DNA of 32,000 nt, from positions 1-32,000 of the forward strand of contig CAZPUN010000007.1 of the NCBI GenBank assembly GCA_964589775.1, given 5' to 3'. Source of the DNA: an uncultured archaeon. GTDB taxonomy: Archaea > Asgardarchaeota > Thorarchaeia > Thorarchaeales > CAZPUN01. Of this stretch, positions 16,011 to 28,926 are shown in pieces (within the stretch, counting starts at the first letter, position 1; each line of letters begins with the position of its first letter). The position numbers and the translations under genes are program-made. The notes below the pieces were generated by a model that saw only the letters and a list, made by a program, of their open reading frames with translations, was not told the origin of the DNA and did not search any database.

Positions 16011-17105
16011 ATGGTTACTTTAAGACTTGAACACCTAACTAAGAAATATAATAAAGTGGCAGTTGTTGATGATGTATCATTAACAGTGAATGATGGTGAA
16101 TATGTTGTAATTGCAGGTCCGACAGGTGCAGGAAAAACTACAACATTAAAAATGATTGCAGGCTTGATCACTCCAGATGCAGGACATATTTATTTTGATG
16201 ATGAAGATGTTACAGATATACCACCCGAAGACCGAAATGTAGGATTACTATTTGAGGAATATGCACTTTTTCCACATATGACAGTCCTAGAAAATGTACT
16301 TTATTCACCATATGTGAAGGATAAATTAAACGAAGAAGCGAAATTCGCAGCAATGGATATATTACGTATGGTATTACTAGATGATCGAGCGGATGCATAT
16401 CCACGTCATCTTTCAGGGGGAATGCAGCAGAGAACCGCATTAGCACGAACATTAATGGCAGGAGCTCAAATATTGTTACTTGACCAGCCACTTAGAGCTC
16501 TCGATGCTAGAATTCGCCAATCATTACGAAAAGAACTTAAACGACTTTCAAAAACTATGAAATTGACGGCACTACATCTCACAAATAGTACACAAGAGGC
16601 ATTGATCATTGCAGATAGAGTTGCAGTCATGAGACGGGGAAGAATTTTGCAAATTGGAACACCCATGGAAGTATATAACAAACCAAAAACACCCTTTGTG
16701 GCGTATTTCATGGGCGATACGGAATTTTTCGAAGGAGAACCATTAGAAAAACACGACGGCGAAATCATTTTTGATATTGAAGGCGAGAAAATCGCTATAG
16801 ACTACGAACAGGATATTCCAAGGGGAAAGCTACTCCTGGGAATTCGACCAGAGTATATTTATCTTTCAGAAAAGAAAATCGACAACGCAGTAAGTGGAAC
16901 CATCACAGAAGCGAAATTCTTAGGAGATACCGTCTATTATGAACTTGAACTCAATTCAGGACGAATCCTTGAAGTTCTTGAACCGGGAAAAACAGAGAAA
17001 TTACACGATATTGGCGAGAAAATCTACGCGAATCTTGATAGAAAACGGTTCTTTGTATTTCAGTATCCCAAAGAGGGATTAAAAGATGCACTCTCATTGA
17101 CATAA
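16011..17105 (+). CDS. ABC ATPase 2 (paralog) with a degenerate Q-loop, catalytic base and H-loop
   Basis: Walker A GPTGAGKTT and signature LSGGMQQR, but LFEE, LLLDQP and LTNS. Confidence 0.92.
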   Translation: MVTLRLEHLTKKYNKVAVVDDVSLTVNDGEYVVIAGPTGAGKTTTLKMIAGLITPDAGHIYFDDEDVTDIPPEDRNVGLLFEEYALFPHMTVLENVLYSPYVKDKLNEEAKFAAMDILRMVLLDDRADAYPRHLSGGMQQRTALARTLMAGAQILLLDQPLRALDARIRQSLRKELKRLSKTMKLTALHLTNSTQEALIIADRVAVMRRGRILQIGTPMEVYNKPKTPFVAYFMGDTEFFEGEPLEKHDGEIIFDIEGEKIAIDYEQDIPRGKLLLGIRPEYIYLSEKKIDNAVSGTITEAKFLGDTVYYELELNSGRILEVLEPGKTEKLHDIGEKIYANLDRKRFFVFQYPKEGLKDALSLT

Positions 17106-17243
17106 CACAACGCTCCATGCAAACCCTTATCCAAGACATATATGGACTTTTTTATTCTTTTATTATAAATAATATCTAAGATATATAGTTTTTAAAAAAT
17201 CGCAAAAACAAAGAAATATCCTTTGAATAATTCGTATTTACCC

Positions 17244-17269
17244 CCATAAAGTATTATGGATTTTATAAA
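17244..17269 (+). promoter_or_regulatory. Inverted repeat abutting a TATA box
   Basis: CCATAA-N4-TTATGG (17244-59) followed by TTTTATAAA (17261-69), ~60 nt before the 17329 start. Confidence 0.4.
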
Positions 17270-17328
17270 CATCACCGTAATCTCTATATTAGATATAATC
17301 CAAATATATTGTATATGGAGGGATTTTT

Positions 17329-20300
17329 ATGGAACCTCTAAGTTCAGTTATAATAGAAATTGAAGGATCCAATCTAAAGGTTACAAATAAATCAGAAGAT
17401 GTAAATGAAGAATTAATTCAGCAGGTAAATAAGATAATTCAATCAACATTGCAGCCGGAAAGTGTGAGTGACAAAATAGTAGGCATGTTAAATATTTCAG
17501 ATAGATATATTGTTATATACGCAAACTTGAGTGAAGAACGCATACGTGTGAGATATGTTGTTTTGAATTATGAAACATATAAAAAATTTGATTTTAATCC
17601 GTATATATTAATTGATTCCGTTGGAGAAAAAATTAACTCGAATGATGTATCTTTAGAAATTTCAGACTTAAAAGAAAAAATACCGAATGAGGATTTAGAG
17701 GCTGCGTTTAAGTATCCTGGAGGAAAAGATACAATTATATTTTTAATGGAGCACGCAATGAAATCTAAAGATCCAGAATATATAATTGGAAAAGAAAAGG
17801 CTCCAGCAAACACACTATTCAAAGCAATTTGTCATTTAATGCCCATATCCGAACGAAATAATTTTGCGTTTATCTCATACGCAAATAAACCAATAAAGAA
17901 TTATTTCAAATACTTATACACCTCAAAAGAAACATTTGTTAATTTCGATATAGAACTTGCAAAAGGATTAAAGACGATTACATTAGACGATTTTTCGATT
18001 AAGGCACCATCAGGAGCAAAAACAAAATATGGAAAGTTTTTGGCAGCTCTATTAGAACGAAATATGGATGATGCTGTTAAATTCATGTACGATATAAATG
18101 GAATAATACGAGCACGTACAGCAAGTTATAAAATATTAAAGAATATCCCAGATAATTATGTTGATTACATAAGGGGCATTAATACATTAAAGGCTGCAAA
18201 TTCTCCAGATGAAGCAATTAGTCGATTAAAGGGATTTAAATCAATCTATCTGGATTCAAGCCGTATTATAGATCTGATAAATAGAGCATGGAAATATTTT
18301 GAGGATGCTCAGAAGAATGAGGATTTGAAGATTCAAAATGTAGCAAACACACTATCCGATGTGTTGCGAAAACATATCTCAAATCTCAAAACTGTTGCAG
18401 CTCAGGAAGGAACAAACGAAAATGTGACAAAATACATAACAGAGGAGATAATACCGAAATTAGAAGTCTTGGTACCTATAAATGCAAAGGCAAGTCTTGG
18501 GTTGTTTTCAACCATATATGAAGAGTATATATCTGATAAATCATTTGGACTTTCAAAACCTATATTGGATATTGCATTATTTGTTATTAATACCTTCAAA
18601 AGCAGCGACGAATCAATTGTTGTTAAATTAAACCAAATGATGCTTCAAATATTGAACCAAGAAGATATTATAAGATACACACTTGAAACATCCAATTATC
18701 TTTCAATTCCAAAATTACTTATGGACGATACAGTGTTTTTGATGAACTCTTTGTTATCTATTGAAAAGAAAGTACAACTCGAAGTGAATCTAGGTCATTT
18801 TTCGGAAATCATTACAAAACATTTGAAAAACGGAAACATAGACGATTCAGTTGTTCGCAATATCACAATGAAAATAATAGACATCATAGTTTCATGGACT
18901 GCCAAAAGATTACAAGAAGATAAACCAGTCTTTGAACTATTTGATCCGACATTTGATTTGATTATAGCATATAATTTCAGTGATCAAATGACAGTAAATG
19001 AGAAGATATCTTTTGGAATCTTTGGTTGTAAAGTATCGATCATAGAACAGCACATACAAGCATTCGAAAAATACGTAAAGTTCTCCGTAGATGCAGAAAA
19101 CATCGAGATAGATAACATACACAAGAGCAGTTCATTCAGACAGTTGTTAAATATTTTAGATGAAATTACGGAACTAAGAACCATATTTAAGAGAGCAAAA
19201 GAAATTACTAATACAAAATTTGAATTTGAAAAGAAAGTTTCACCCGAATTTATAAATGAACAGGGCCTCAACTTGTTTAAATATATTTACAAATTATATG
19301 AGAAATCCGAAGAATGCAGATATCAGATACTATACAGATTTGAAAAATTATTGCCACATATACACTCGGATAATATTGATGATATTAAAGAAATAGTAAT
19401 AATGACACACAATGAAGCAATAAAACTCAAAAATAACAATTTAGATGACCGTGCAATATCATTGTTCAATATAGCACTAAGCGGTTTATCTAAAATTGAA
19501 GAGTATACCGCATACATAGAAATCGCAAATGAATTGATTCCAATTATCTCAAGTCCAAATGTTCTATCACAATACGCATTTCAGTTTATTGATTTATATG
19601 AAAAACTAACGGCTGAAACGCTAGTAAAATATCATGATCTTATCAAAAGTATCGTATATCGAATCTATCCAAGTAAGAAAGATTTGGCTCTATCAATTAT
19701 GCTGAAAGAACTTAATATACTAAAGATACTGAATCCAGACCTTTATTTTGAAACAATAAATTACAACATTACCCTATCTGTAAGTGATAATAAAATAGTT
19801 GCTAAATTATTTAATGAATTATTAAGCAGCCGAGACATTGATGCAAACCGTTTTATTACATTAACTGCCGAAACAATGATTAAAGCGTACAAGAACAACA
19901 AAGAAATTTTAGATTCAATTATTGAAGCAACTCTATTTTCCTTGATAACCCACAATGAATTTGATGATGCGCTAAAAATTCTTGATATTGTATTCTCAAA
20001 GATTCAGGATGCATTCAAAGATTTTGCAAGAGAGTATCTAAAAATCCTGCTTAGAGTTCCAATAAATACATTACTTATGTTTATAGATCGTGTTTTTGCT
20101 GCGAATGTCTCAGAGGCTACAATCATAAGTATTGCCTTACAAAAGAATGCAATTGATTCAAATAATATGGTATACGCGTTACCAATAACACAAAAGATAG
20201 GACTCTCAATCATTCCAGAAGCCTATACGGAATATATTCAGAATGTTAATGAAATTATAAACAATTTTACTCGAGTGGATTGTGAGGATTATATCAAATT

Positions 20301-21807
20301 TGAAAACGACTTAAAATCTATCTATGATACTATTCTTATTCGTGAAGATAATGCTTTAAACGCGGGAATGTTCAAAGAATTATTAAATATGTCTATGAAA
20401 TTATTTGAAAAGATCTCACATTGTAAAGAAACAACGCTAAAATTAACTCAAACAGATTTCGCAAGAGTATTAATTGATATTTCGCAAAAATTGAATCTGT
20501 TCGGAGAAACTACTATTGAGATTATTAAAAAGCTCTACGAAATCTCGGAATACGAAAATGCCTTGGTGTGCTGGAAATATACTATGGAATTTGTTATTTC
20601 TTTAGGAGACAAAAATACTATTACAAGTCTATACGACACCATCTTAGAATATCCAGAATTAATTCAAAAAATGACCAGTGAAGACTTCATAAGGTACATC
20701 CCAATAGCAGTAGATGTAAACCATAGAGATGCACTCATAACTTTGATAACTTCGAAATATATCAGCAATGTCGTAGAAGATCCAGAGGAATTCATAACAG
20801 ATCTTTCAAGCTTAGACAGTCTAATTAAGGACATTAGAAGTCTTCCAATAGAACAACAAAAGAACCTCATTCAATATATTATCAAGTTTTCGAACATACT
20901 TCCAAATATTATTAATCATGTGTTGAAATCAAAGGATCCCTCGGATGAAATCTACGTAAGAGTTTCAACTGCAGTTGGAGCGTTCCTCGCAATTTCTATT
21001 TCAAATGAATATTATGATACGTCAGAAATTATTGAGGAGCAAATAAAATTCTGGTTCAGCACAAATAATGCAGACGCTGTTGTTGCATTCTTAGAAAGTA
21101 TCATGAACAATCTAAATGAAAAATACCGAGCCTCATTGCTAAATAGTTTCTTCGAGAAAGTGGAAGCAGTCGAGATAAATGCTACAACAGCTAGAGTTTA
21201 TGCAGAGGTCCTACGTGCTCTTACAAAATACATGAAGAAAAACGGCGAGAAAATCATGAAACAATCAGCAAAAATCCTCGCTTCTGTTCCAGCAGGACCT
21301 GGTCTCATTATTCCATTTATTGTTCCAAAATCTAAAGATGAAGAACCACCCATCAAGACAAAGAGCCCAGAGGACTTGACAAAACTCGTACTCGATATCA
21401 CTTCATATATTCTAAAATCTACAAAAGTTACCCCTAAGACAAAGGAAGAACAAGAAATCTATGTGACGATGGGCGAGAATCTTGATAGGCTTACGAAATA
21501 CTTCAGAGAACGCGCTGGACTTACAGACTGGCTCATAAAAGACGAAAAAGAAGCGAAAAAACTCAAGAAATACAAAGGGTTCTTCGACAAAACATTGGAT
21601 ATATTAAAGATCATATTTGATACATATCCGAAGCTCTCTCAAGACCTCCAGGAGAAAATATATCCGCATATGAGAGATATAACAGAATCGCAATTATATT
21701 ACTGGAGTGCCATCGGCGAACTGAAAATCCGAAGGTATCTATGTCAAAAAATAAACGTACTCTTTTCAAATGAACCCGAACTTAAGATGTCATGCTTTGG
21801 ATTCTAA
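17329..21807 (+). CDS. Large cytoplasmic protein: N-terminal longin/DENN-like (GAP1-N2/GAP1-M-like) module plus a long alpha-helical, solenoid-like region
   Basis: 1492-aa ORF with a GGAGG SD and no signal peptide. N-terminal b-b-a-b-b-b-a pattern, then LFKAICHLMPISERNNFAFISY. The remainder is amphipathic helices. The CDS is certain; the domain call is inferred. Confidence 0.6.
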   Translation: MEPLSSVIIEIEGSNLKVTNKSEDVNEELIQQVNKIIQSTLQPESVSDKIVGMLNISDRYIVIYANLSEERIRVRYVVLNYETYKKFDFNPYILIDSVGEKINSNDVSLEISDLKEKIPNEDLEAAFKYPGGKDTIIFLMEHAMKSKDPEYIIGKEKAPANTLFKAICHLMPISERNNFAFISYANKPIKNYFKYLYTSKETFVNFDIELAKGLKTITLDDFSIKAPSGAKTKYGKFLAALLERNMDDAVKFMYDINGIIRARTASYKILKNIPDNYVDYIRGINTLKAANSPDEAISRLKGFKSIYLDSSRIIDLINRAWKYFEDAQKNEDLKIQNVANTLSDVLRKHISNLKTVAAQEGTNENVTKYITEEIIPKLEVLVPINAKASLGLFSTIYEEYISDKSFGLSKPILDIALFVINTFKSSDESIVVKLNQMMLQILNQEDIIRYTLETSNYLSIPKLLMDDTVFLMNSLLSIEKKVQLEVNLGHFSEIITKHLKNGNIDDSVVRNITMKIIDIIVSWTAKRLQEDKPVFELFDPTFDLIIAYNFSDQMTVNEKISFGIFGCKVSIIEQHIQAFEKYVKFSVDAENIEIDNIHKSSSFRQLLNILDEITELRTIFKRAKEITNTKFEFEKKVSPEFINEQGLNLFKYIYKLYEKSEECRYQILYRFEKLLPHIHSDNIDDIKEIVIMTHNEAIKLKNNNLDDRAISLFNIALSGLSKIEEYTAYIEIANELIPIISSPNVLSQYAFQFIDLYEKLTAETLVKYHDLIKSIVYRIYPSKKDLALSIMLKELNILKILNPDLYFETINYNITLSVSDNKIVAKLFNELLSSRDIDANRFITLTAETMIKAYKNNKEILDSIIEATLFSLITHNEFDDALKILDIVFSKIQDAFKDFAREYLKILLRVPINTLLMFIDRVFAANVSEATIISIALQKNAIDSNNMVYALPITQKIGLSIIPEAYTEYIQNVNEIINNFTRVDCEDYIKFENDLKSIYDTILIREDNALNAGMFKELLNMSMKLFEKISHCKETTLKLTQTDFARVLIDISQKLNLFGETTIEIIKKLYEISEYENALVCWKYTMEFVISLGDKNTITSLYDTILEYPELIQKMTSEDFIRYIPIAVDVNHRDALITLITSKYISNVVEDPEEFITDLSSLDSLIKDIRSLPIEQQKNLIQYIIKFSNILPNIINHVLKSKDPSDEIYVRVSTAVGAFLAISISNEYYDTSEIIEEQIKFWFSTNNADAVVAFLESIMNNLNEKYRASLLNSFFEKVEAVEINATTARVYAEVLRALTKYMKKNGEKIMKQSAKILASVPAGPGLIIPFIVPKSKDEEPPIKTKSPEDLTKLVLDITSYILKSTKVTPKTKEEQEIYVTMGENLDRLTKYFRERAGLTDWLIKDEKEAKKLKKYKGFFDKTLDILKIIFDTYPKLSQDLQEKIYPHMRDITESQLYYWSAIGELKIRRYLCQKINVLFSNEPELKMSCFGF

Positions 21808-21895
21808 AATCCTACCCTCTTTTCTATTTTTAAGAAAAATCATATATATTAAATCAAACAAATTTATATTTATTCAAAATTCATGAGGGTTTTTT

Positions 21896-23914
21896 ATGCC
21901 AAAACAAAATATCTTGTTTCAAAGAGAATACTTGACGAATTTTGCGCGATTAGTATCAAAAACTGAACCACCAATATTATTAACAAATCCCTCTTGGAAA
22001 TCAGAAATAAATGTAGTTGCCGTAGATGACAAATATGTATATACCGGTCAATTGAATGATATGGTGGGGATCTGGAAACGTGGTACATGGATACACGTGG
22101 GGACAATTTCAGGATTTGAAAATGATATCACAGACATAGCATTTGATGATAAATATATCTACATAGGAAATTCTGATTATGAAATAGATATATTTCAAAA
22201 GGAATCATGGGAATTTGTAGCCAAAATGAAGGGAGATACTGATTTCGGCAAAAGAATATCTGTTGATGATAAATTTCTGTATGTCTTATCTCAAAAAGGA
22301 GTAATAATCTATTCAAAAGAAAACCGCGAGCAAGTTTCAATACTTGAGTTCAATTTAAACGAAAATACATCATTAGACATTGATGACCAATTTGTATATT
22401 GTGGAAATAGAGATGGCAAGATTAGAATATGGGAGAAGAATTCATGGAAACAGATCACCGAAATAGAAGCACATTCATGGTCCGTTTCAGCTCTCACCCA
22501 TGATGAAGAATATTTGTATTCCGCATCATGGGAAAATGATATCAAGGTATGGAAGAAGAACTCATGGGAAAATATTGCAATTATGAAAAAACATACATCA
22601 TTTGTTTCAGATATTGTACTGTGTGATAATTATATAATAAGCGTGTCATATGACATGCAAGCCATTAGATGGGAGAAAAATACATGGAAATTACATTCGA
22701 TTTTTCTAAAATCTCCAGATGTAATCACTAGCGTCGCCATTGATGATGAATTCATTTATATGGGTACTAAAGGAGAGAGAGTCTTCATTTTGGACAGAAA
22801 CACGTTTTCATTAATTGATCCCAGGAAAGAACTACCACTAACGATTAATACTTTGGCTATTGATGATAAATATGTATATGCAGGTGGGGAATATGACTTT
22901 CTGAAAATATTCAATAAAGAATTCGAGATTGTAGAAATTCTGAATGGACATGAAGGAAACGTACTTGCGGCAGCTGTGGATGACAAATACATCTACACCG
23001 GTTCAGATGATGAAACAATTCGTGTTTATGAAAAAGGATCATGGAAACATATCAAGACTCTAATGGACCATAGAGAATCTGTAACTACATTAACAACTGA
23101 TGGACGATATTTATATTCTGGGTCCAGGGATAATACAGTTAAGGTCTGGGATAGAGAAACATGGAAATGTATCGCAACTCTGAAAAACCATAGATTGTGG
23201 ATTATTGCATTAGCCGTAGATGACAAATATGTATATTCATGTTCGACAGATGGAGTTCTGGTAATCACAAGTAAAGAAACATGGGAACCAATTACCTATT
23301 TTGAAGAAGATATAGAAACATTTGGAATAGATGAAAAATACTTGTACTTATCCTCAGAAAAGTCCATATATGTCTTGGATAAGGAGTCCCGCAAAACTAT
23401 AACAACATTAGAAGGATACGTTTCAAACATAGAATCAATATACGCAGATGAAGATTACTTATATACTGGCAGCATAAATGGAAATTTTGTCATATGGAAA
23501 AAATCAACATGGGAACCGATAGGCATATTCGATGGTCATTGCTGTTCAATAAATGCTATTACTGGAGATGATAAATTCATATATACTGGCTCATCTGATA
23601 AGACCGTTAGAAGATGGCCCAGATGGATCGCAACCCAAAACGAAGAAGAAATGAGAAAATTTATCCTAAAATTGTTTGAAGAAAGCGAAACACTGACAAT
23701 TCAAGATTATGAATCATATTATTGGGCATCATGGTATAGTGATGTATTGAAATTTATTATGGATAGCGATTCTGAACTTGCAGAAGAAGCAAGGTATCAC
23801 TTGATAGGCATTACGAAAAAACAGATGGATTATATCAACGAAAAAATTGGTTCGAAGTGGAGTATGTACGAAATACAACATCTCATGAAAATAATTAAAA
23901 AGTTGAACATATAG
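21896..23914 (+). CDS. WD40-repeat protein with 14 repeats (two 7-bladed propellers) and a helical C-terminal tail
   Basis: Fourteen ~40-aa units with D[DE]xY[IVL]Y cores, e.g. GHEGNVLAAAVDDKYIYTGSDDETIRVYE and YSGSRDNTVKVWD. Confidence 0.92.
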   Translation: MPKQNILFQREYLTNFARLVSKTEPPILLTNPSWKSEINVVAVDDKYVYTGQLNDMVGIWKRGTWIHVGTISGFENDITDIAFDDKYIYIGNSDYEIDIFQKESWEFVAKMKGDTDFGKRISVDDKFLYVLSQKGVIIYSKENREQVSILEFNLNENTSLDIDDQFVYCGNRDGKIRIWEKNSWKQITEIEAHSWSVSALTHDEEYLYSASWENDIKVWKKNSWENIAIMKKHTSFVSDIVLCDNYIISVSYDMQAIRWEKNTWKLHSIFLKSPDVITSVAIDDEFIYMGTKGERVFILDRNTFSLIDPRKELPLTINTLAIDDKYVYAGGEYDFLKIFNKEFEIVEILNGHEGNVLAAAVDDKYIYTGSDDETIRVYEKGSWKHIKTLMDHRESVTTLTTDGRYLYSGSRDNTVKVWDRETWKCIATLKNHRLWIIALAVDDKYVYSCSTDGVLVITSKETWEPITYFEEDIETFGIDEKYLYLSSEKSIYVLDKESRKTITTLEGYVSNIESIYADEDYLYTGSINGNFVIWKKSTWEPIGIFDGHCCSINAITGDDKFIYTGSSDKTVRRWPRWIATQNEEEMRKFILKLFEESETLTIQDYESYYWASWYSDVLKFIMDSDSELAEEARYHLIGITKKQMDYINEKIGSKWSMYEIQHLMKIIKKLNI

Positions 23915-23939
23915 GCTATTTTCAGTCTTTTTAATTAAT

Positions 23940-23974
23940 AAAAAAATAAAAAAAGGATTAGTGGAAATTAATCC
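23940..23974 (-). terminator. Hairpin plus U-tract terminator
   Basis: GGATTA(23955-60)/TAATCC(23969-74) overlapping the stop codon, followed by long U runs on the minus strand. Confidence 0.6.
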
Positions 23975-26900
23975 ATTCCTATCTTGGGACCTGGACCAGG
24001 ACCTGGACCCGGAGGTACCTTCCTGAACGTCTTAGTTGCATATGTAGTATCGCCTTCTGAATCATACATAACGAGTTTAAGTGTATGTGTACCGTAAGCT
24101 AACGAAGAAATGCCAAAATAGCCATACCAGTAATTACTGCTTTTAGTGAGCGTGCCGTAATATTTGTTATCGATATAGACCTTAATATATGCGATTCCAT
24201 CTGGATCTGATGCATATGCCTTCACATAAAGTTTCTTGGTGCTTGATAGATAACTAGCTAAGCTTATTGTTAGTGTGCCTGCGAAATCGCCAACGCTAAG
24301 AGTTACTGTCTTCTGTGTCATGCATCCAAAGATATCATAAACCTTGAACACAATCCTATAGGTTCCTTCTCTGGGTGGCATCCAGTTTGCAGTGTAATAT
24401 CCATTGCTATAGGACATCGAGACTGTATTGATGATGCTTGAGCCTTTCATAATTACAGCTTTAACTGATGAGATACCATTAGGATCAACTGCGTGTATCT
24501 TAAGATTTACATTGGTATTTCCATCGACTGAGCTTCCAGGACTGGAAACTCCAATCGTTGCAGGTATTGGCTTATACACGGCAAGCCAAAATGCATAAGT
24601 CATAGTATTTCCTTCGTTATCAGCACTCTTCAGAATGAAGCGAAGCACTGTGTAAATCTTGAGCCCAAGAATGTCATATAGATTTACGTGATATCTACGT
24701 ACTATCTTAGAGTATAGCAATTTACCCTTAAATTCTGTACTCGTATGAGAAACAACTGAACCCGATACGGTAGCTGCCTTGTATGTTTTCTGTGCATATA
24801 TCACAGATATCTGAGCTCCTGAGGGATATGTATCATAGATTTCATATCCATATCCGTAATGTCTTTCAAAGTCAAAATATACAATGTTATCAATACTGAT
24901 ATCATCAAACATCCAGTTTCCTCTGGCTAAGAATGCATCTACTGTTAGTATTCGTTCAAATGGGAACTTGGTATGCAAATCATGAAGCAGATCGAGCTTC
25001 ACATTATTCCAATCGTCCTTCTTCAAATTCAATGGCAGATGCAGATATCCGCTGCTTACGTAATATGGCTGGAAGTTTCCGGGGTGATACGTTAGATACA
25101 TATGATAGTGTGTTGTATCGATACGTATGAATAGATACCAGAAATTATCTGAGGGCTTAGCAACAAAGTTGAATTCAACTCTGTCTGTATATCTAGGTCG
25201 GTGTCCATCATCGGTATTATAGCTGTGTCGTGGAGTGAACCAAAGTCGGAATCCATTATCTGTACCTGAACTAACAGTACGAAGTACCTTACTAGACTCA
25301 TTGACATAGATATCAAGCTGCGATGGATAATTGATATCTACACCACTGAATACAGTGTATCTATGTGTTCCGGAACCATATGGAAGATTATTGTATTCTA
25401 ATGTAAGTTTGCGATCTTCAAATGTAAAATCAAAATCACGCTCACCTACAGGAATTGCAGAACTCTCGCTTGGTGGATTCACACTTAGAGGATGATTGGC
25501 ACTAATTATTGGTGCTTCCCAATCACATGGCTTTTCAACGTAGTATAGCTTGGATGCCTTAGAAACAAGACCGGCATTATCGATCGCAACAGCATAGAAC
25601 ATGTGCCAGCCTTCTTTCAGATTATATTGATCCATACGGCGATATAAATCCATATGCACTTTCCAGATTCCCTTCCATCCGCGTTTGCCTGAAACCTCTC
25701 CAACTCCAGCTGCATCAACTTGAGAACTTACAAGTTCTATGAAACCATTATCATTGCTTGAACTAGATGTGGATCTCCAGACATGACCCGCTTTATACTG
25801 AATACCTACAATTTCCACGGTAATTGAAACGCCTTTCTTAGTTGAAGGTGCAATTACATGACGTGGAATATAGTGTGGATCTAGGACTAATTCGCCGTTT
25901 ACAATGTAGTATTCGAAGGAACCAGGGATTATTTCACCACGAGCGAGATGAATTGTATTTCCTGAATACCATGGGCCCCAAATTTCTATATCATTGCCAT
26001 AGCCTACCTGACGAACGCTGCCAGATGAACTCATGAATGCTAATGCAAAGCCAGATACATTAGGATTATGTATCCTAACTTTAGGTCGTACCATATATAC
26101 GCCAGTCTTAGATAACGTGTACGAATATTCAGGATTTGATTGAGATAGTGTAGCCTGTACAGATACAGTTTCAAATCGAGTGTGTCCTGCTTCAGGATCA
26201 TCAATGTATAAATACACAGAAGAAACTTTGTTGTTAGTGATCTTATTGCCATTGATTACGGGATGCTCATCAAAGGTATAAATCTCTAATGTAGCATTAT
26301 CTCCAGAGAGTGGTAGAGTCTTATTGATATGAATTATAAGTGGAATTGAACCAAAATCACCGAGTAAGTCGCATCCGATTAGGTTTCCGATTTTCTTAAG
26401 TATTTTCGCTCCATTCTGAATAATCTGTTGATATATAGTGAATGATATAGAGCCAGAAGAGCCGTAGTTTATACTTTGATCTAATTGAGAGTTGGGAGTA
26501 ATGAAAGTTACAAATGGTGGCGTATGATCAAAAGCTGAACCTTCAGTTATTTCAGCTCCTGCTATTTCATGAAAGCCACCTTCAACAAATTTCATACCCC
26601 AAGGAACTTTCCAGTTCAGCTGGGCTTCCCATAGTACGTTAGCGATATACGTTGAAGGTGAAGTTTTCGTTCCAAACGGAAGGAAAATAGCATTTCCACC
26701 CATGCGGTCTATGAGAGAGAAGTCAAATTCTTTCTTGATAGGTCCAAGACCAATTTCACCACTGATTTTGAACCTAGCTTCAAGAACTGGCCAATAAATG
26801 ACGAATTTCTCGAATATTGTCTCATTCGACCTGATCTTAATGTGACCATCTAATGTAAAGCTCATCTTGAATTGGACATCAAGAGTTACCTTTAATACAG

Positions 26901-28419
26901 GTGTTTCGAACTCTAAGTTTAATACGAAATTACCCTGACCATTGGGCAATCCATATTTCGTTGCACTGAACAAAAGATCGATACCATCGTCTGTTTCTGT
27001 GGCTACAACCCATATTGTAGCAACCTTATCTGGACCTATTGTGAGCTTTGGTAGCATACTTTTCAGTTTCTTAACGAGACCAGTATCATTCTCGTTTGCT
27101 GTATACTTTGCGAAGTCAACAACAATAGCACTTCCGGGAGTAATGATGATTCCACCGTAAAATCGCGTAAATCCTATTATAGGACACCTTGATGTGAACC
27201 ATACTTCAAGGGTTCGCTCACCGTATTGACTTGGAATCTTAGAGTATCCAATAAGCTTGTAAATTGTATCATCTGGGTTTCCAGTTGTAGAACGATATAA
27301 CTTGCCATTGTAAGAACTATTTATAGTTGCTCCAGGATTGTTATGGTCACTTGCGTAGTACTCTAATAGAATATCAAAGTAGAAAAATCCACTGATATCC
27401 ACATAGGATGTTATAGGAACTCCGTAAACTACAACTTCTTTCTCCAATCTTAATGTTATCTTAGTGAAAATTTGAAGGACCTTTGAATACACATCTGCAT
27501 CTAATACATCCTCGGAGAAGACCTGCTCCTTTACGGATGCTGCAAACTCAATTTTTATTGGACCCTTAGAAAACTCAAAGTGTAGGAACTTGTTTATTGC
27601 TTTGATGATAATGTTCTCAACGTCTTGTTCTGTAATTATGACTTCAGGTGGATCTTCAGAAGTAAATATCTGATAGAACAAACGAATAATTGTATTAATT
27701 GGACCGTTGGGGTCATCTAGACCAAGATTGTGTAATGTATTGTTTATGAATTCTTGGAATTTCTTATAATATGGGTTCTTCCAATGCAATGCTTCCATAG
27801 TCTCAATAGGATTAATGGTACGCCCAATTATTGATACATAATTGTCTTCATCATTAATGAATTCGGAAATATGTACCAATAATGGATTGTCCTTCTTGTT
27901 CTGTGGCGTATGAATTTCGCCATACTCAATAGCTGTAATCACTGTTGCAGGAAAGTAGTCAATGGCTTTATCAAAGCCACGAACATCATAGTAGGAATTA
28001 CCAATGTATTTCTTAATAGTGTTGGAATAACACGATACAAACAAATGTGTCTTAACATGAGTGTTCTGAACATCTAGGGCTATCCGCTTCCATGAGACAT
28101 GATTACTTCCGATAACTAAACCGGATTTATCACCATGGAAGACATAAATGAATGTTGAGGCACTCGAAGACCACAAAGATGAATCAATCATCTCTGTATA
28201 GTCGCTTATGTAGTATACCGAGTAGTCGACATAGCTGTCAAATAGTTGATCAAACAAATCAACTGATTTTGATGCAACAGCATCATTCTTCTCGGCAAAT
28301 ATAATTGTCGAATGTGTTTCAGTGGTCGGCTCGAAAATGAGCCCCTGTACTGAAATTGTAGATGCCATACTACCCAAGAGTAGTACGAGCAGAAATAGAC
28401 TCACGTGCGTATTCTTCAA
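23968..28419 (-). CDS. Large secreted multidomain protein: caspase/CHAT-like His-Cys domain, beta-rich core, jelly-roll and Ig-like domains, Pro-Gly tail
   Basis: TTG start at 28419, 9 nt after GGAGG. Signal peptide; YVFHG...LFVSCYS; Ig-like units (DHTPPFVTFITP...AVAIDNAG, AVDPNGISSV, ASDPDGIAYIKVYID); ends PPGPGPGPGPKIGMD. Confidence 0.75.
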   Translation of the reverse strand: MKNTHVSLFLLVLLLGSMASTISVQGLIFEPTTETHSTIIFAEKNDAVASKSVDLFDQLFDSYVDYSVYYISDYTEMIDSSLWSSSASTFIYVFHGDKSGLVIGSNHVSWKRIALDVQNTHVKTHLFVSCYSNTIKKYIGNSYYDVRGFDKAIDYFPATVITAIEYGEIHTPQNKKDNPLLVHISEFINDEDNYVSIIGRTINPIETMEALHWKNPYYKKFQEFINNTLHNLGLDDPNGPINTIIRLFYQIFTSEDPPEVIITEQDVENIIIKAINKFLHFEFSKGPIKIEFAASVKEQVFSEDVLDADVYSKVLQIFTKITLRLEKEVVVYGVPITSYVDISGFFYFDILLEYYASDHNNPGATINSSYNGKLYRSTTGNPDDTIYKLIGYSKIPSQYGERTLEVWFTSRCPIIGFTRFYGGIIITPGSAIVVDFAKYTANENDTGLVKKLKSMLPKLTIGPDKVATIWVVATETDDGIDLLFSATKYGLPNGQGNFVLNLEFETPVLKVTLDVQFKMSFTLDGHIKIRSNETIFEKFVIYWPVLEARFKISGEIGLGPIKKEFDFSLIDRMGGNAIFLPFGTKTSPSTYIANVLWEAQLNWKVPWGMKFVEGGFHEIAGAEITEGSAFDHTPPFVTFITPNSQLDQSINYGSSGSISFTIYQQIIQNGAKILKKIGNLIGCDLLGDFGSIPLIIHINKTLPLSGDNATLEIYTFDEHPVINGNKITNNKVSSVYLYIDDPEAGHTRFETVSVQATLSQSNPEYSYTLSKTGVYMVRPKVRIHNPNVSGFALAFMSSSGSVRQVGYGNDIEIWGPWYSGNTIHLARGEIIPGSFEYYIVNGELVLDPHYIPRHVIAPSTKKGVSITVEIVGIQYKAGHVWRSTSSSSNDNGFIELVSSQVDAAGVGEVSGKRGWKGIWKVHMDLYRRMDQYNLKEGWHMFYAVAIDNAGLVSKASKLYYVEKPCDWEAPIISANHPLSVNPPSESSAIPVGERDFDFTFEDRKLTLEYNNLPYGSGTHRYTVFSGVDINYPSQLDIYVNESSKVLRTVSSGTDNGFRLWFTPRHSYNTDDGHRPRYTDRVEFNFVAKPSDNFWYLFIRIDTTHYHMYLTYHPGNFQPYYVSSGYLHLPLNLKKDDWNNVKLDLLHDLHTKFPFERILTVDAFLARGNWMFDDISIDNIVYFDFERHYGYGYEIYDTYPSGAQISVIYAQKTYKAATVSGSVVSHTSTEFKGKLLYSKIVRRYHVNLYDILGLKIYTVLRFILKSADNEGNTMTYAFWLAVYKPIPATIGVSSPGSSVDGNTNVNLKIHAVDPNGISSVKAVIMKGSSIINTVSMSYSNGYYTANWMPPREGTYRIVFKVYDIFGCMTQKTVTLSVGDFAGTLTISLASYLSSTKKLYVKAYASDPDGIAYIKVYIDNKYYGTLTKSSNYWYGYFGISSLAYGTHTLKLVMYDSEGDTTYATKTFRKVPPGPGPGPGPKIGMD

Positions 28420-28926
28420 TAGAAATCTCCTCCACACGAAGGTCAATTATAAAAACAAAATATTAATTTATAAAATTTATTTACAGCGCATTTATAAAAA
28501 TTAAATAAATCGTTAATTTATTTTTTAAAAGTTTTCAGCACATTTTTTTACATTTTTGCAGACCACTAATAAACCAATTTGCAATTAATAAAGCGTTTTT
28601 TTGCATGAACTTTGTTTGTATCCGATATATCACATAGAACTTGGCGCTATAACAATTAAAATTATATATCTGAAATATATTAAGGTTATAGTTAAAATTG
28701 AGCGATTAAATTGATTTATAAATCTAAAAAATGAATATTATCCAATTTTCGATTTTTGCACATAACCTTATTTTATTAATGAGATATCTGAAATAATGAA
28801 AAAAATTTTTGAGAATATAAATTTCATATCATAAGCATTTAACAAAATTTGAATACGAATTATTTTAAAACTTACAAAAAAATTTAATCTACGAATCTGC
28901 GAAAATTAATTTGTAGTAATAAGGAT

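Follow-up and report, generated by a model that had tools for sequence, protein, structure and literature searches.

A long helical protein with a probable GAP1/DENN-type head beside a WD40 protein in a Thorarchaeales archaeon: tentatively, a GTPase-less relative of GTPase-centric conflict systems

GTPase-centric conflict systems with a DO-GTPase ('double-GTPase') and GAP1 (GTPase-associated protein 1) were described by Kaur, Burroughs, Iyer & Aravind (2020, PMC7159879). From Asgard archaea, an operon of Roadblock, Rab-like GTPase and DENN genes has been reported, as well as expanded DENN paralogs with non-eukaryotic architectures (Liu et al., 10.1101/2020.10.19.343400). Here we analysed two neighbouring genes of an uncultured Thorarchaeales archaeon, located in a stretch of 32,000 nucleotides (the window; assembly GCA_964589775.1, contig CAZPUN010000007.1, positions 1 to 32,000). 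Gene A encodes the protein P0001 and gene B the WD40 protein P0002. Both open reading frames (ORFs) were open and in the same orientation, with 88 bp between them (21808-21895), as proposed in an earlier interpretation of the letters (the sequence-only reading). The head of P0001 is probably related to GAP1 and DENN proteins, and the pair may, tentatively, represent a derivative of the DO-GTPase/GAP1 systems without the GTPase.

17329..21807, + strand: gene A (P0001), 1492 amino acids (aa), consisting of a head with predicted GAP1/DENN fold, a long arm that is helix-rich by composition and a C-terminal module conserved in the ortholog
21896..23914, + strand: gene B (P0002), 672 aa, WD40 protein, from the ORF and Pfam matches

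The evidence that carries the assignment comes from the first ~330 residues of P0001, in which the following parts were distinguished.

17329..17628, + strand: residues 1-100, longin/roadblock-like (uDENN, GAP1-N2-like), from model secondary structure, fold matches and alignment A8
17686..18024, + strand: residues 120-232, cDENN-like/GAP1-M-like alpha/beta core with LMPxSER, from a sub-threshold Pfam GAP1-M match, A8 and DENN fold matches
18025..18318, + strand: residues 233-330, last part of the head, helical and dDENN-like, from the predicted model and Foldseek

From 5.8 billion protein clusters, a word-indexed search recovered a single relative of P0001, the ortholog P0003, with 57% identity. 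For both proteins the top Pfam match was GAP1-M (PF20014), located identically in the two (E 0.003 and 0.03; residues 145-188 of P0001), with scores of 16.6-18.3 bits for P0001, 15.1 for P0003 and 20.3 in a six-frame search, all below the gathering score of 24 bits; GAP1-N2 (PF20013) gave no match in P0001. When P0001 was used in an ESM Atlas feature search, all ten of the ten best matches were GAP1-N2/M clusters (score 0.86), while residues 330-1492, with the head removed, gave no usable match. In agreement with this, a hidden Markov model (HMM) of nine Asgard GAP1 heads ranked P0003 first among 4947 ORFs (E 1.6e-4), and with the cut heads it aligned colinearly over the N2-like and M-like domains of P0003 (E 2e-6) and P0001 (E 3.5e-4, residues 18-200), these E-values being those of a proteome-sized search (Z=4947). 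In an 18-row alignment of the two orthologs and 16 Asgard GAP1 heads (A8), the LLPxSxR-type motif was retained in P0001 as LMPxSER and P172 was invariant. The YTS and AGxDExGRPxRxxH motifs of the family were missing from residues 1-100 in the same alignment, the loop of the latter having disappeared through a deletion of eight residues in both orthologs (alignments A6 and A8).

Other sequence searches were negative. BLASTP and phmmer comparisons of P0001 with Asgard GAP1 proteins gave nothing significant, a word-indexed search with an 11-row head alignment gave nothing at database-wide E-values, and searches of PDB sequences with the head and with the arm gave no match. PADLOC and NCBIfam returned no meaningful match to P0001, and none of the Pfam DENN families matched it at E up to 10; PF02141 had no match genome-wide.

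We then considered the predicted fold. The predicted secondary structure of residues 1-100 is beta-beta-alpha-beta-beta-beta-alpha. An AlphaFold2 model of the head built with the two orthologs only was unusable (pLDDT 39.8), while the 18-row alignment gave a moderate-confidence model (pLDDT 64.7, pTM 0.59) in which the tripartite DENN fold, consisting of longin/uDENN, alpha/beta core and helical lobe, was seen. In a Foldseek search of the PDB with this model the top eight matches were all DENN proteins (DENND1B, DENND1A, C9orf72/SMCR8, FLCN/FNIP2 and DENND10), with 3tw8 at E 5.9e-4 and probability 0.99. VIA-align, an independent aligner that compares all against all, gave Z 7.6 for DENND1A (6ekk_A; 229 residues, root-mean-square deviation 5.5), 7.4 for DENND1B (3tw8_C), 7.2 for TagF and 6.7 for DENND10, all four over 216-240 residues and with DENN matches covering model residues 1-274, and these scores exceeded those of single-domain longin/roadblock matches (Z 4-5.8). 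An ESM Atlas shape search returned bacterial GAP1 clusters in all ten of its ten rows (TM-score by query 0.50-0.61 over 225-292 residues). The description of gene A as DENN-like in the sequence-only reading was thus borne out for the model of residues 1-330, while its description as all-helical was correct in part: residues 1-232 are predicted to be alpha/beta, and the remainder appears helix-rich by composition. We infer that the head is homologous to GAP1, and its kinship to GAP1 and DENN proteins is probable. The GAP1 literature, as searched, made no mention of a link between GAP1 and either DENN or longin.

When GAP1 models were run against the phylum, canonical loci came up in other Asgard genomes and showed how such heads are arranged there. 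One or two P-loop GTPase genes lay directly upstream of the head gene in G002, G393, G306, G319, G196, G127, G086, G099, G104, G093, G114 and G131, and the upstream GTPase of G002 matched the Pfam DO-GTPase1/2 models. The gene after the head gene was often large, encoding an FG-GAP propeller-type protein in G002, G393, G127 and G044 and a protein with a PLD-domain C-terminus in G319; in G127 a STAND NTPase was located further downstream of the head gene. In their make-up of GTPase, head and large protein, these loci agree with what Kaur et al. described as GTPase-centric conflict systems. The locus of G002, a genome of the same order (L021, contig C118, 4289-12956, - strand), is a tight operon with overlapping stop and start for a DO-GTPase, a 1552-aa GAP1-N2/M protein and a 980-aa FG-GAP-type protein, and similar loci were observed in G393, G306, G196 and G319 (L080-L082 and L047).

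No comparable GTPase was found with P0001. Searches of its genome with PF19975, PF19993 and an HMM of thirteen Asgard DO-GTPases gave P-loop-level matches only, and no DO-GTPase adjoins P0001, the gene upstream encoding an ABC ATPase. The Arg-bearing loop and the GTPase are both missing, which suggests that the head may no longer act on a GTPase.

The GAP1-head profile also matched a conserved Asgard protein of ~298 aa, weakly (E 3e-5 to 2e-3; L068, L070 and L075 in G162, G247 and G298); its gene always adjoins that of a DRG-like GTPase and may represent another pair of head and GTPase. In the same-order genome G003 (L074, contig C22, 638-3059), three short P-loop NTPase genes flank the gene of a 313-aa protein that matches the profile weakly.

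The rest of P0001 consists of the following parts.

18319..21243, + strand: residues 331-1305, long helix-rich arm, from composition, with no detectable relatives or internal sequence repeats
21244..21375, + strand: residues 1306-1349, Pro/Gly-rich, 93% identical between orthologs, from the ortholog alignment; together with the helices before it, this stretch is similar to a single armadillo-type unit
21376..21804, + strand: residues 1350-1492, conserved C-terminal domain, 78% identity, from ortholog comparison

Beyond the head P0001 is poor in Pro and Gly, and no relatives, Pfam repeat family, internal repeat (by self-BLAST) or transmembrane segment were found in residues 331-1305. In canonical Asgard GAP1 proteins, too, the arms are unrelated to each other except in close pairs. 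A unit of ~43 residues around residues 1290-1333 resembled a unit of designed armadillo proteins, each match being worth only ~6 bits. Between the orthologs, conservation was lowest in the longin part (41%) and highest at the C-terminus. Because residues 1306-1349 are the most conserved part of P0001, they are more likely to be a binding motif than a passive linker and would be a candidate peptide for the propeller face. The last eleven residues, EPELKMSCFGF (21772-21804), are identical in the 57%-identical ortholog; the Cys that they place at position -4 recalls a lipidation signal of CaaX type.

Gene B contributes the repeat protein of the pair.

21998..23626, + strand: residues 35-577, 14 WD40 repeats, from Pfam and the repeat count
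23627..23911, + strand: residues 578-672, helical tail of ~95 aa, common to other WD40 proteins
Contigs C63:388-2415, C5:11509-12771, C56:26850-28757 and C28:14789-14980 of the same genome (G000): tail-bearing paralogs and tail-only ORF

The repeat count and the strong Pfam WD40 matches of P0002 agreed with the earlier claim of exactly 14 repeats and a helical tail. The repeats span residues ~35-577, and each has a length of 37-40 aa and is recognizable by strands of DDKY[VI]Y type. They suffice for two seven-bladed propellers; their mean inter-repeat identity was 22%, and no tandem repeat was found in the gene at the DNA level. The tail recurred in three further WD40 proteins and in an 83-aa tail-only ORF of the same genome, all at unrelated loci, and among 87 same-order genomes it was present in one other, in one protein; a word-indexed search with the tail gave no match. 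A homotypic adaptor (EAD-like) link between the two proteins was considered and rejected, the tail having no copy in P0001.

Considering these observations, we favour, with reserve, a reading in which the locus derives from conflict-type systems of DO-GTPase and GAP1 but has no GTPase, and serves as a scaffold whose repeat subunit is the WD40 protein. Gene A would encode a strongly diverged protein of the GAP1 kind, restricted in lineage, whose first ~330 residues would form a longin, DENN-core and helical module with the fold of the eukaryotic DENN GTPase regulators. The GTPase gene would be missing and the conserved Arg-bearing loop would have been lost from the head. What remains would probably be a non-catalytic scaffold made up of the head, a fast-evolving helical arm of ~1000 residues and a strongly conserved C-terminal module, and the double-propeller protein would be a ligand-binding or sensor subunit, standing in for the fibronectin type III (FNIII) or FG-GAP propeller proteins of the canonical systems. 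P0001 and P0002 would then act together, presumably with a role in conflict or surveillance. A sensor or scaffold of a conflict system had been the second option of the sequence-only reading, and it fits the GAP1 kinship of the head.

Compared with the GAP1-N2 type of Kaur et al., P0001 appears to share the two-domain head (N2-like and M-like), which aligns colinearly and keeps the LLPxSxR-type motif with its invariant Pro, the long variable C-terminal extension (Asgard members have 1060-1552 aa) and a gene for a repeat-rich protein immediately downstream. In contrast, its locus has no adjacent DO-GTPase and none is recognizable in the genome; its head lacks YTS and AGxDExGRPxRxxH, and the Pfam scores are sub-cut-off; the repeat protein is of WD40 type, as opposed to FNIII in bacteria or FG-GAP at the other Asgard loci, and is analogous to the latter, not homologous; and no effector, transmembrane segment or EAD was recognized.

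Several observations weigh against the scaffold reading. None of the sequence statistics for the GAP1 link reached a curated threshold, and hhalign with shallow profiles gave a probability of 2.4% for the head against GAP1. The head model was built with GAP1 rows, and its likeness to GAP1 is in part a matter of construction; its VIA-align Z scores are middling (<8). Among 1.84 billion representatives, a HMMER profile search returned only P0001 itself and no relative at any length. A DO-GTPase could lie in unassembled sequence, the genome being 96.75% complete, and no recognizable effector domain was found. The link to the WD40 gene rests on a shared neighbourhood in two related, broadly syntenic genomes, in one of which an EamA gene intervenes; WD40-plus-tail paralogs sit at unrelated loci; and gene B probably has a promoter of its own.

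These last points lead to the reading that comes closest to the favoured one, according to which a degenerate GAP1/DENN relic and a WD40-plus-tail paralog simply lie side by side and do not cooperate; we regard it as somewhat unlikely. P0001 was not found in 40 same-order genomes and has no paralog within its own genome. In the only other genome with both genes, they keep the same neighbourhood and strand, in a syntenic region that contains an ABC transporter, P0003, a methylase and NrdD (L002, 14572-21627). A gene for a 299-aa EamA transporter there separates P0003 from the ortholog of P0002 (53% identity), and a second WD40 paralog (43%) lies beyond the methylase. Because of this insertion, strict adjacency of the two genes is unique to the genome studied here; the searches gave no fusion, and the pair occurs in just two genomes of one narrow lineage. 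The conservation of adjacency or fusion across genomes that the sequence-only reading had asked for did not hold up, and its refuting conditions thereby apply in part. Since the whole region, from the ABC transporter through the methylase to NrdD, is syntenic in the two genomes that carry gene A, the linkage of the genes is uninformative, and a shared neighbourhood at such an evolutionary distance would prove little. The parting of the pair by EamA in the relative, the AT-rich upstream region and Shine-Dalgarno sequence that gene B has to itself, and the three other WD40-plus-tail paralogs at unrelated loci are all consistent with mere neighbours, as is the same-order genome G002, in which a tail-bearing protein is present and gene A has no match. 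Against this, the two genes have an uncommon start context in common, both families are limited to the same narrow lineage, and in other Asgard genomes, too, genes for DENN/GAP1 heads are followed by propeller-type genes.

The start contexts and the spacer bear on the same alternative and comprise the following features.

17275..17295, + strand: AT-rich block with a TATA-like core, candidate archaeal promoter of gene A, from the alignment of upstream regions and kept in the ortholog; its function is putative
17315..17331, + strand: start of gene A, with GGAGGG Shine-Dalgarno sequence, T-rich spacer and ATG, from the sequence, the genome pattern count and the ortholog alignment
21808..21895, + strand: spacer that contains a T5 tract, TATA-like stretches rich in A and T and, for gene B, a GAGGG Shine-Dalgarno sequence, from the sequence and the upstream alignment

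The context of gene A is ATGGAGGGATTTTTATG (17315-17331) and that of gene B is ATGAGGGTTTTTTATG (21883-21898). They had been described as near-identical translation starts; the likeness stands, both being of the GAGGG/T-rich kind, while the second string as originally given had one T too many. The pattern ATG[AG]?AGGG[AT]5-7ATG occurred four times in the 2.16-Mb genome, twice at the starts of genes A and B, and GAGGG with an A/T spacer preceded 10 of 1370 long ORFs; the gene of the P0001 ortholog retains a GAGGG-type context. Given this rarity, the two starts have an ordinary Shine-Dalgarno context, though in an uncommon form. As for the hairpin and T tract that had been noted between the genes, the T5 tract is present, while the hairpin folded no better than chance (z -1.30; 22 of 200 shuffles folded as well), and a terminator scan found no + strand site in the spacer. 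Separate transcription of the two genes is possible, since the spacer contains the T5 tract and AT-rich TATA-like stretches.

A further alternative is that P0001 and P0002 resemble the C9orf72-SMCR8-WDR41 (CSW) complex or folliculin, the head being a guanine nucleotide exchange factor or GTPase-activating protein for a Ras-superfamily GTPase encoded elsewhere and the WD40 protein a localizing subunit. The DENN fold of the head model would agree with this, as would the presence in the genome of 23 Pfam Ras matches as candidate clients, the expanded DENN paralogs of non-eukaryotic architecture in Asgard archaea (10.1101/2020.10.19.343400) and the binding of a WD40 protein to a DENN protein in CSW, whose structure 6lt0 was among the fold matches. 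The eukaryotic DENN modules (DENND1A/1B-Rab35, DENND10, C9orf72/SMCR8 and FLCN/FNIP) and bacterial TagF were the best structural matches of the head, with the same predicted longin, alpha/beta core and helical lobe. However, sequence identity to these proteins is 5-11% and no Pfam DENN-family match was found in P0001 or in the genome; the contig has no small GTPase gene; and P0001 is a single DENN-like protein, with no paralog to serve as the second DENN protein of a heterodimer, an extension of ~1160 residues and no linked GTPase. Moreover, a deletion has removed the Arg loop conserved in GAP1 heads, and conservation between the orthologs is lowest in the longin part. With respect to the Asgard operon and paralogs of Liu et al., P0001 is alike in presenting a DENN-type head in an architecture absent from eukaryotes, but its family is limited to two genomes, in contrast with the widely conserved DENN operon, and neither operon neighbour is present. 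On this balance a regulator of the CSW or folliculin kind is improbable.

It is more doubtful still that head, arm and double propeller together form a CSW-like or coat/tether-like complex recruited by a Ras-superfamily GTPase, with the invariant Cys at position -4 as a lipid anchor, which we consider very unlikely; were it true, the complex would be an independently evolved archaeal membrane-associated scaffold made from parts of eukaryotic trafficking machines.

The first proposal of the sequence-only reading, a split proto-coatomer or tether in which an alpha-solenoid arm and a double propeller build a membrane-coat-like lattice, has a very slight probability: 14 WD40 repeats, enough for two propellers, an adjoining long helix-rich protein and one ~43-residue armadillo-like unit recall coatomer-type proteins (alpha/beta'-COP, IFT-A, Sec31 and clathrin), but, generic WD40 likeness apart, neither protein resembles the COPI, COPII, clathrin, nucleoporin or IFT families, the two are separate polypeptides in reversed order (helical protein first), there is one ortholog only and neither a fusion nor a pairing conserved outside one narrow lineage, the arm has no detected internal repeats, and the head ties P0001 to GAP1-type systems instead. 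The pair is a young, lineage-specific invention and not an ancestral module, and for this reason a tempting but unsupported proto-coatomer candidate can be struck from the eukaryote-like features of Asgard archaea.

Returning to the favoured GTPase-less scaffold, the locus offers a boundary case for the emerging picture in which prokaryotic GAP1 and eukaryotic DENN regulators share one fold. A head that survives without GTPase or Arg loop, on an unusually long arm, would help to define which parts of these proteins depend on the GTPase.

The genome that contains the locus is assembled in 64 contigs (2.16 Mb), the present contig having 64.7 kb, along which no small GTPase gene was found; besides the Ras family matches, the genome encodes a true actin (E 8e-132), and both features mark it as that of an Asgard archaeon. 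Upstream, gene A is preceded by an ABC importer operon of four genes, whose ABC ATPase, with a TOBE domain, is the immediate neighbour. On the 3' side of gene B, on the opposite strand, are genes for a Big_7 surface protein of 1492 aa and a type II DNA methylase. The convergent Big_7 gene (23968-28446, - strand) thus encodes a protein of exactly the same length as P0001, to which it is unrelated, and the equal length is a coincidence. The G+C content was 29-35% over genes A and B (17000-24000), compared with 39-41% in the adjoining ABC transporter genes.

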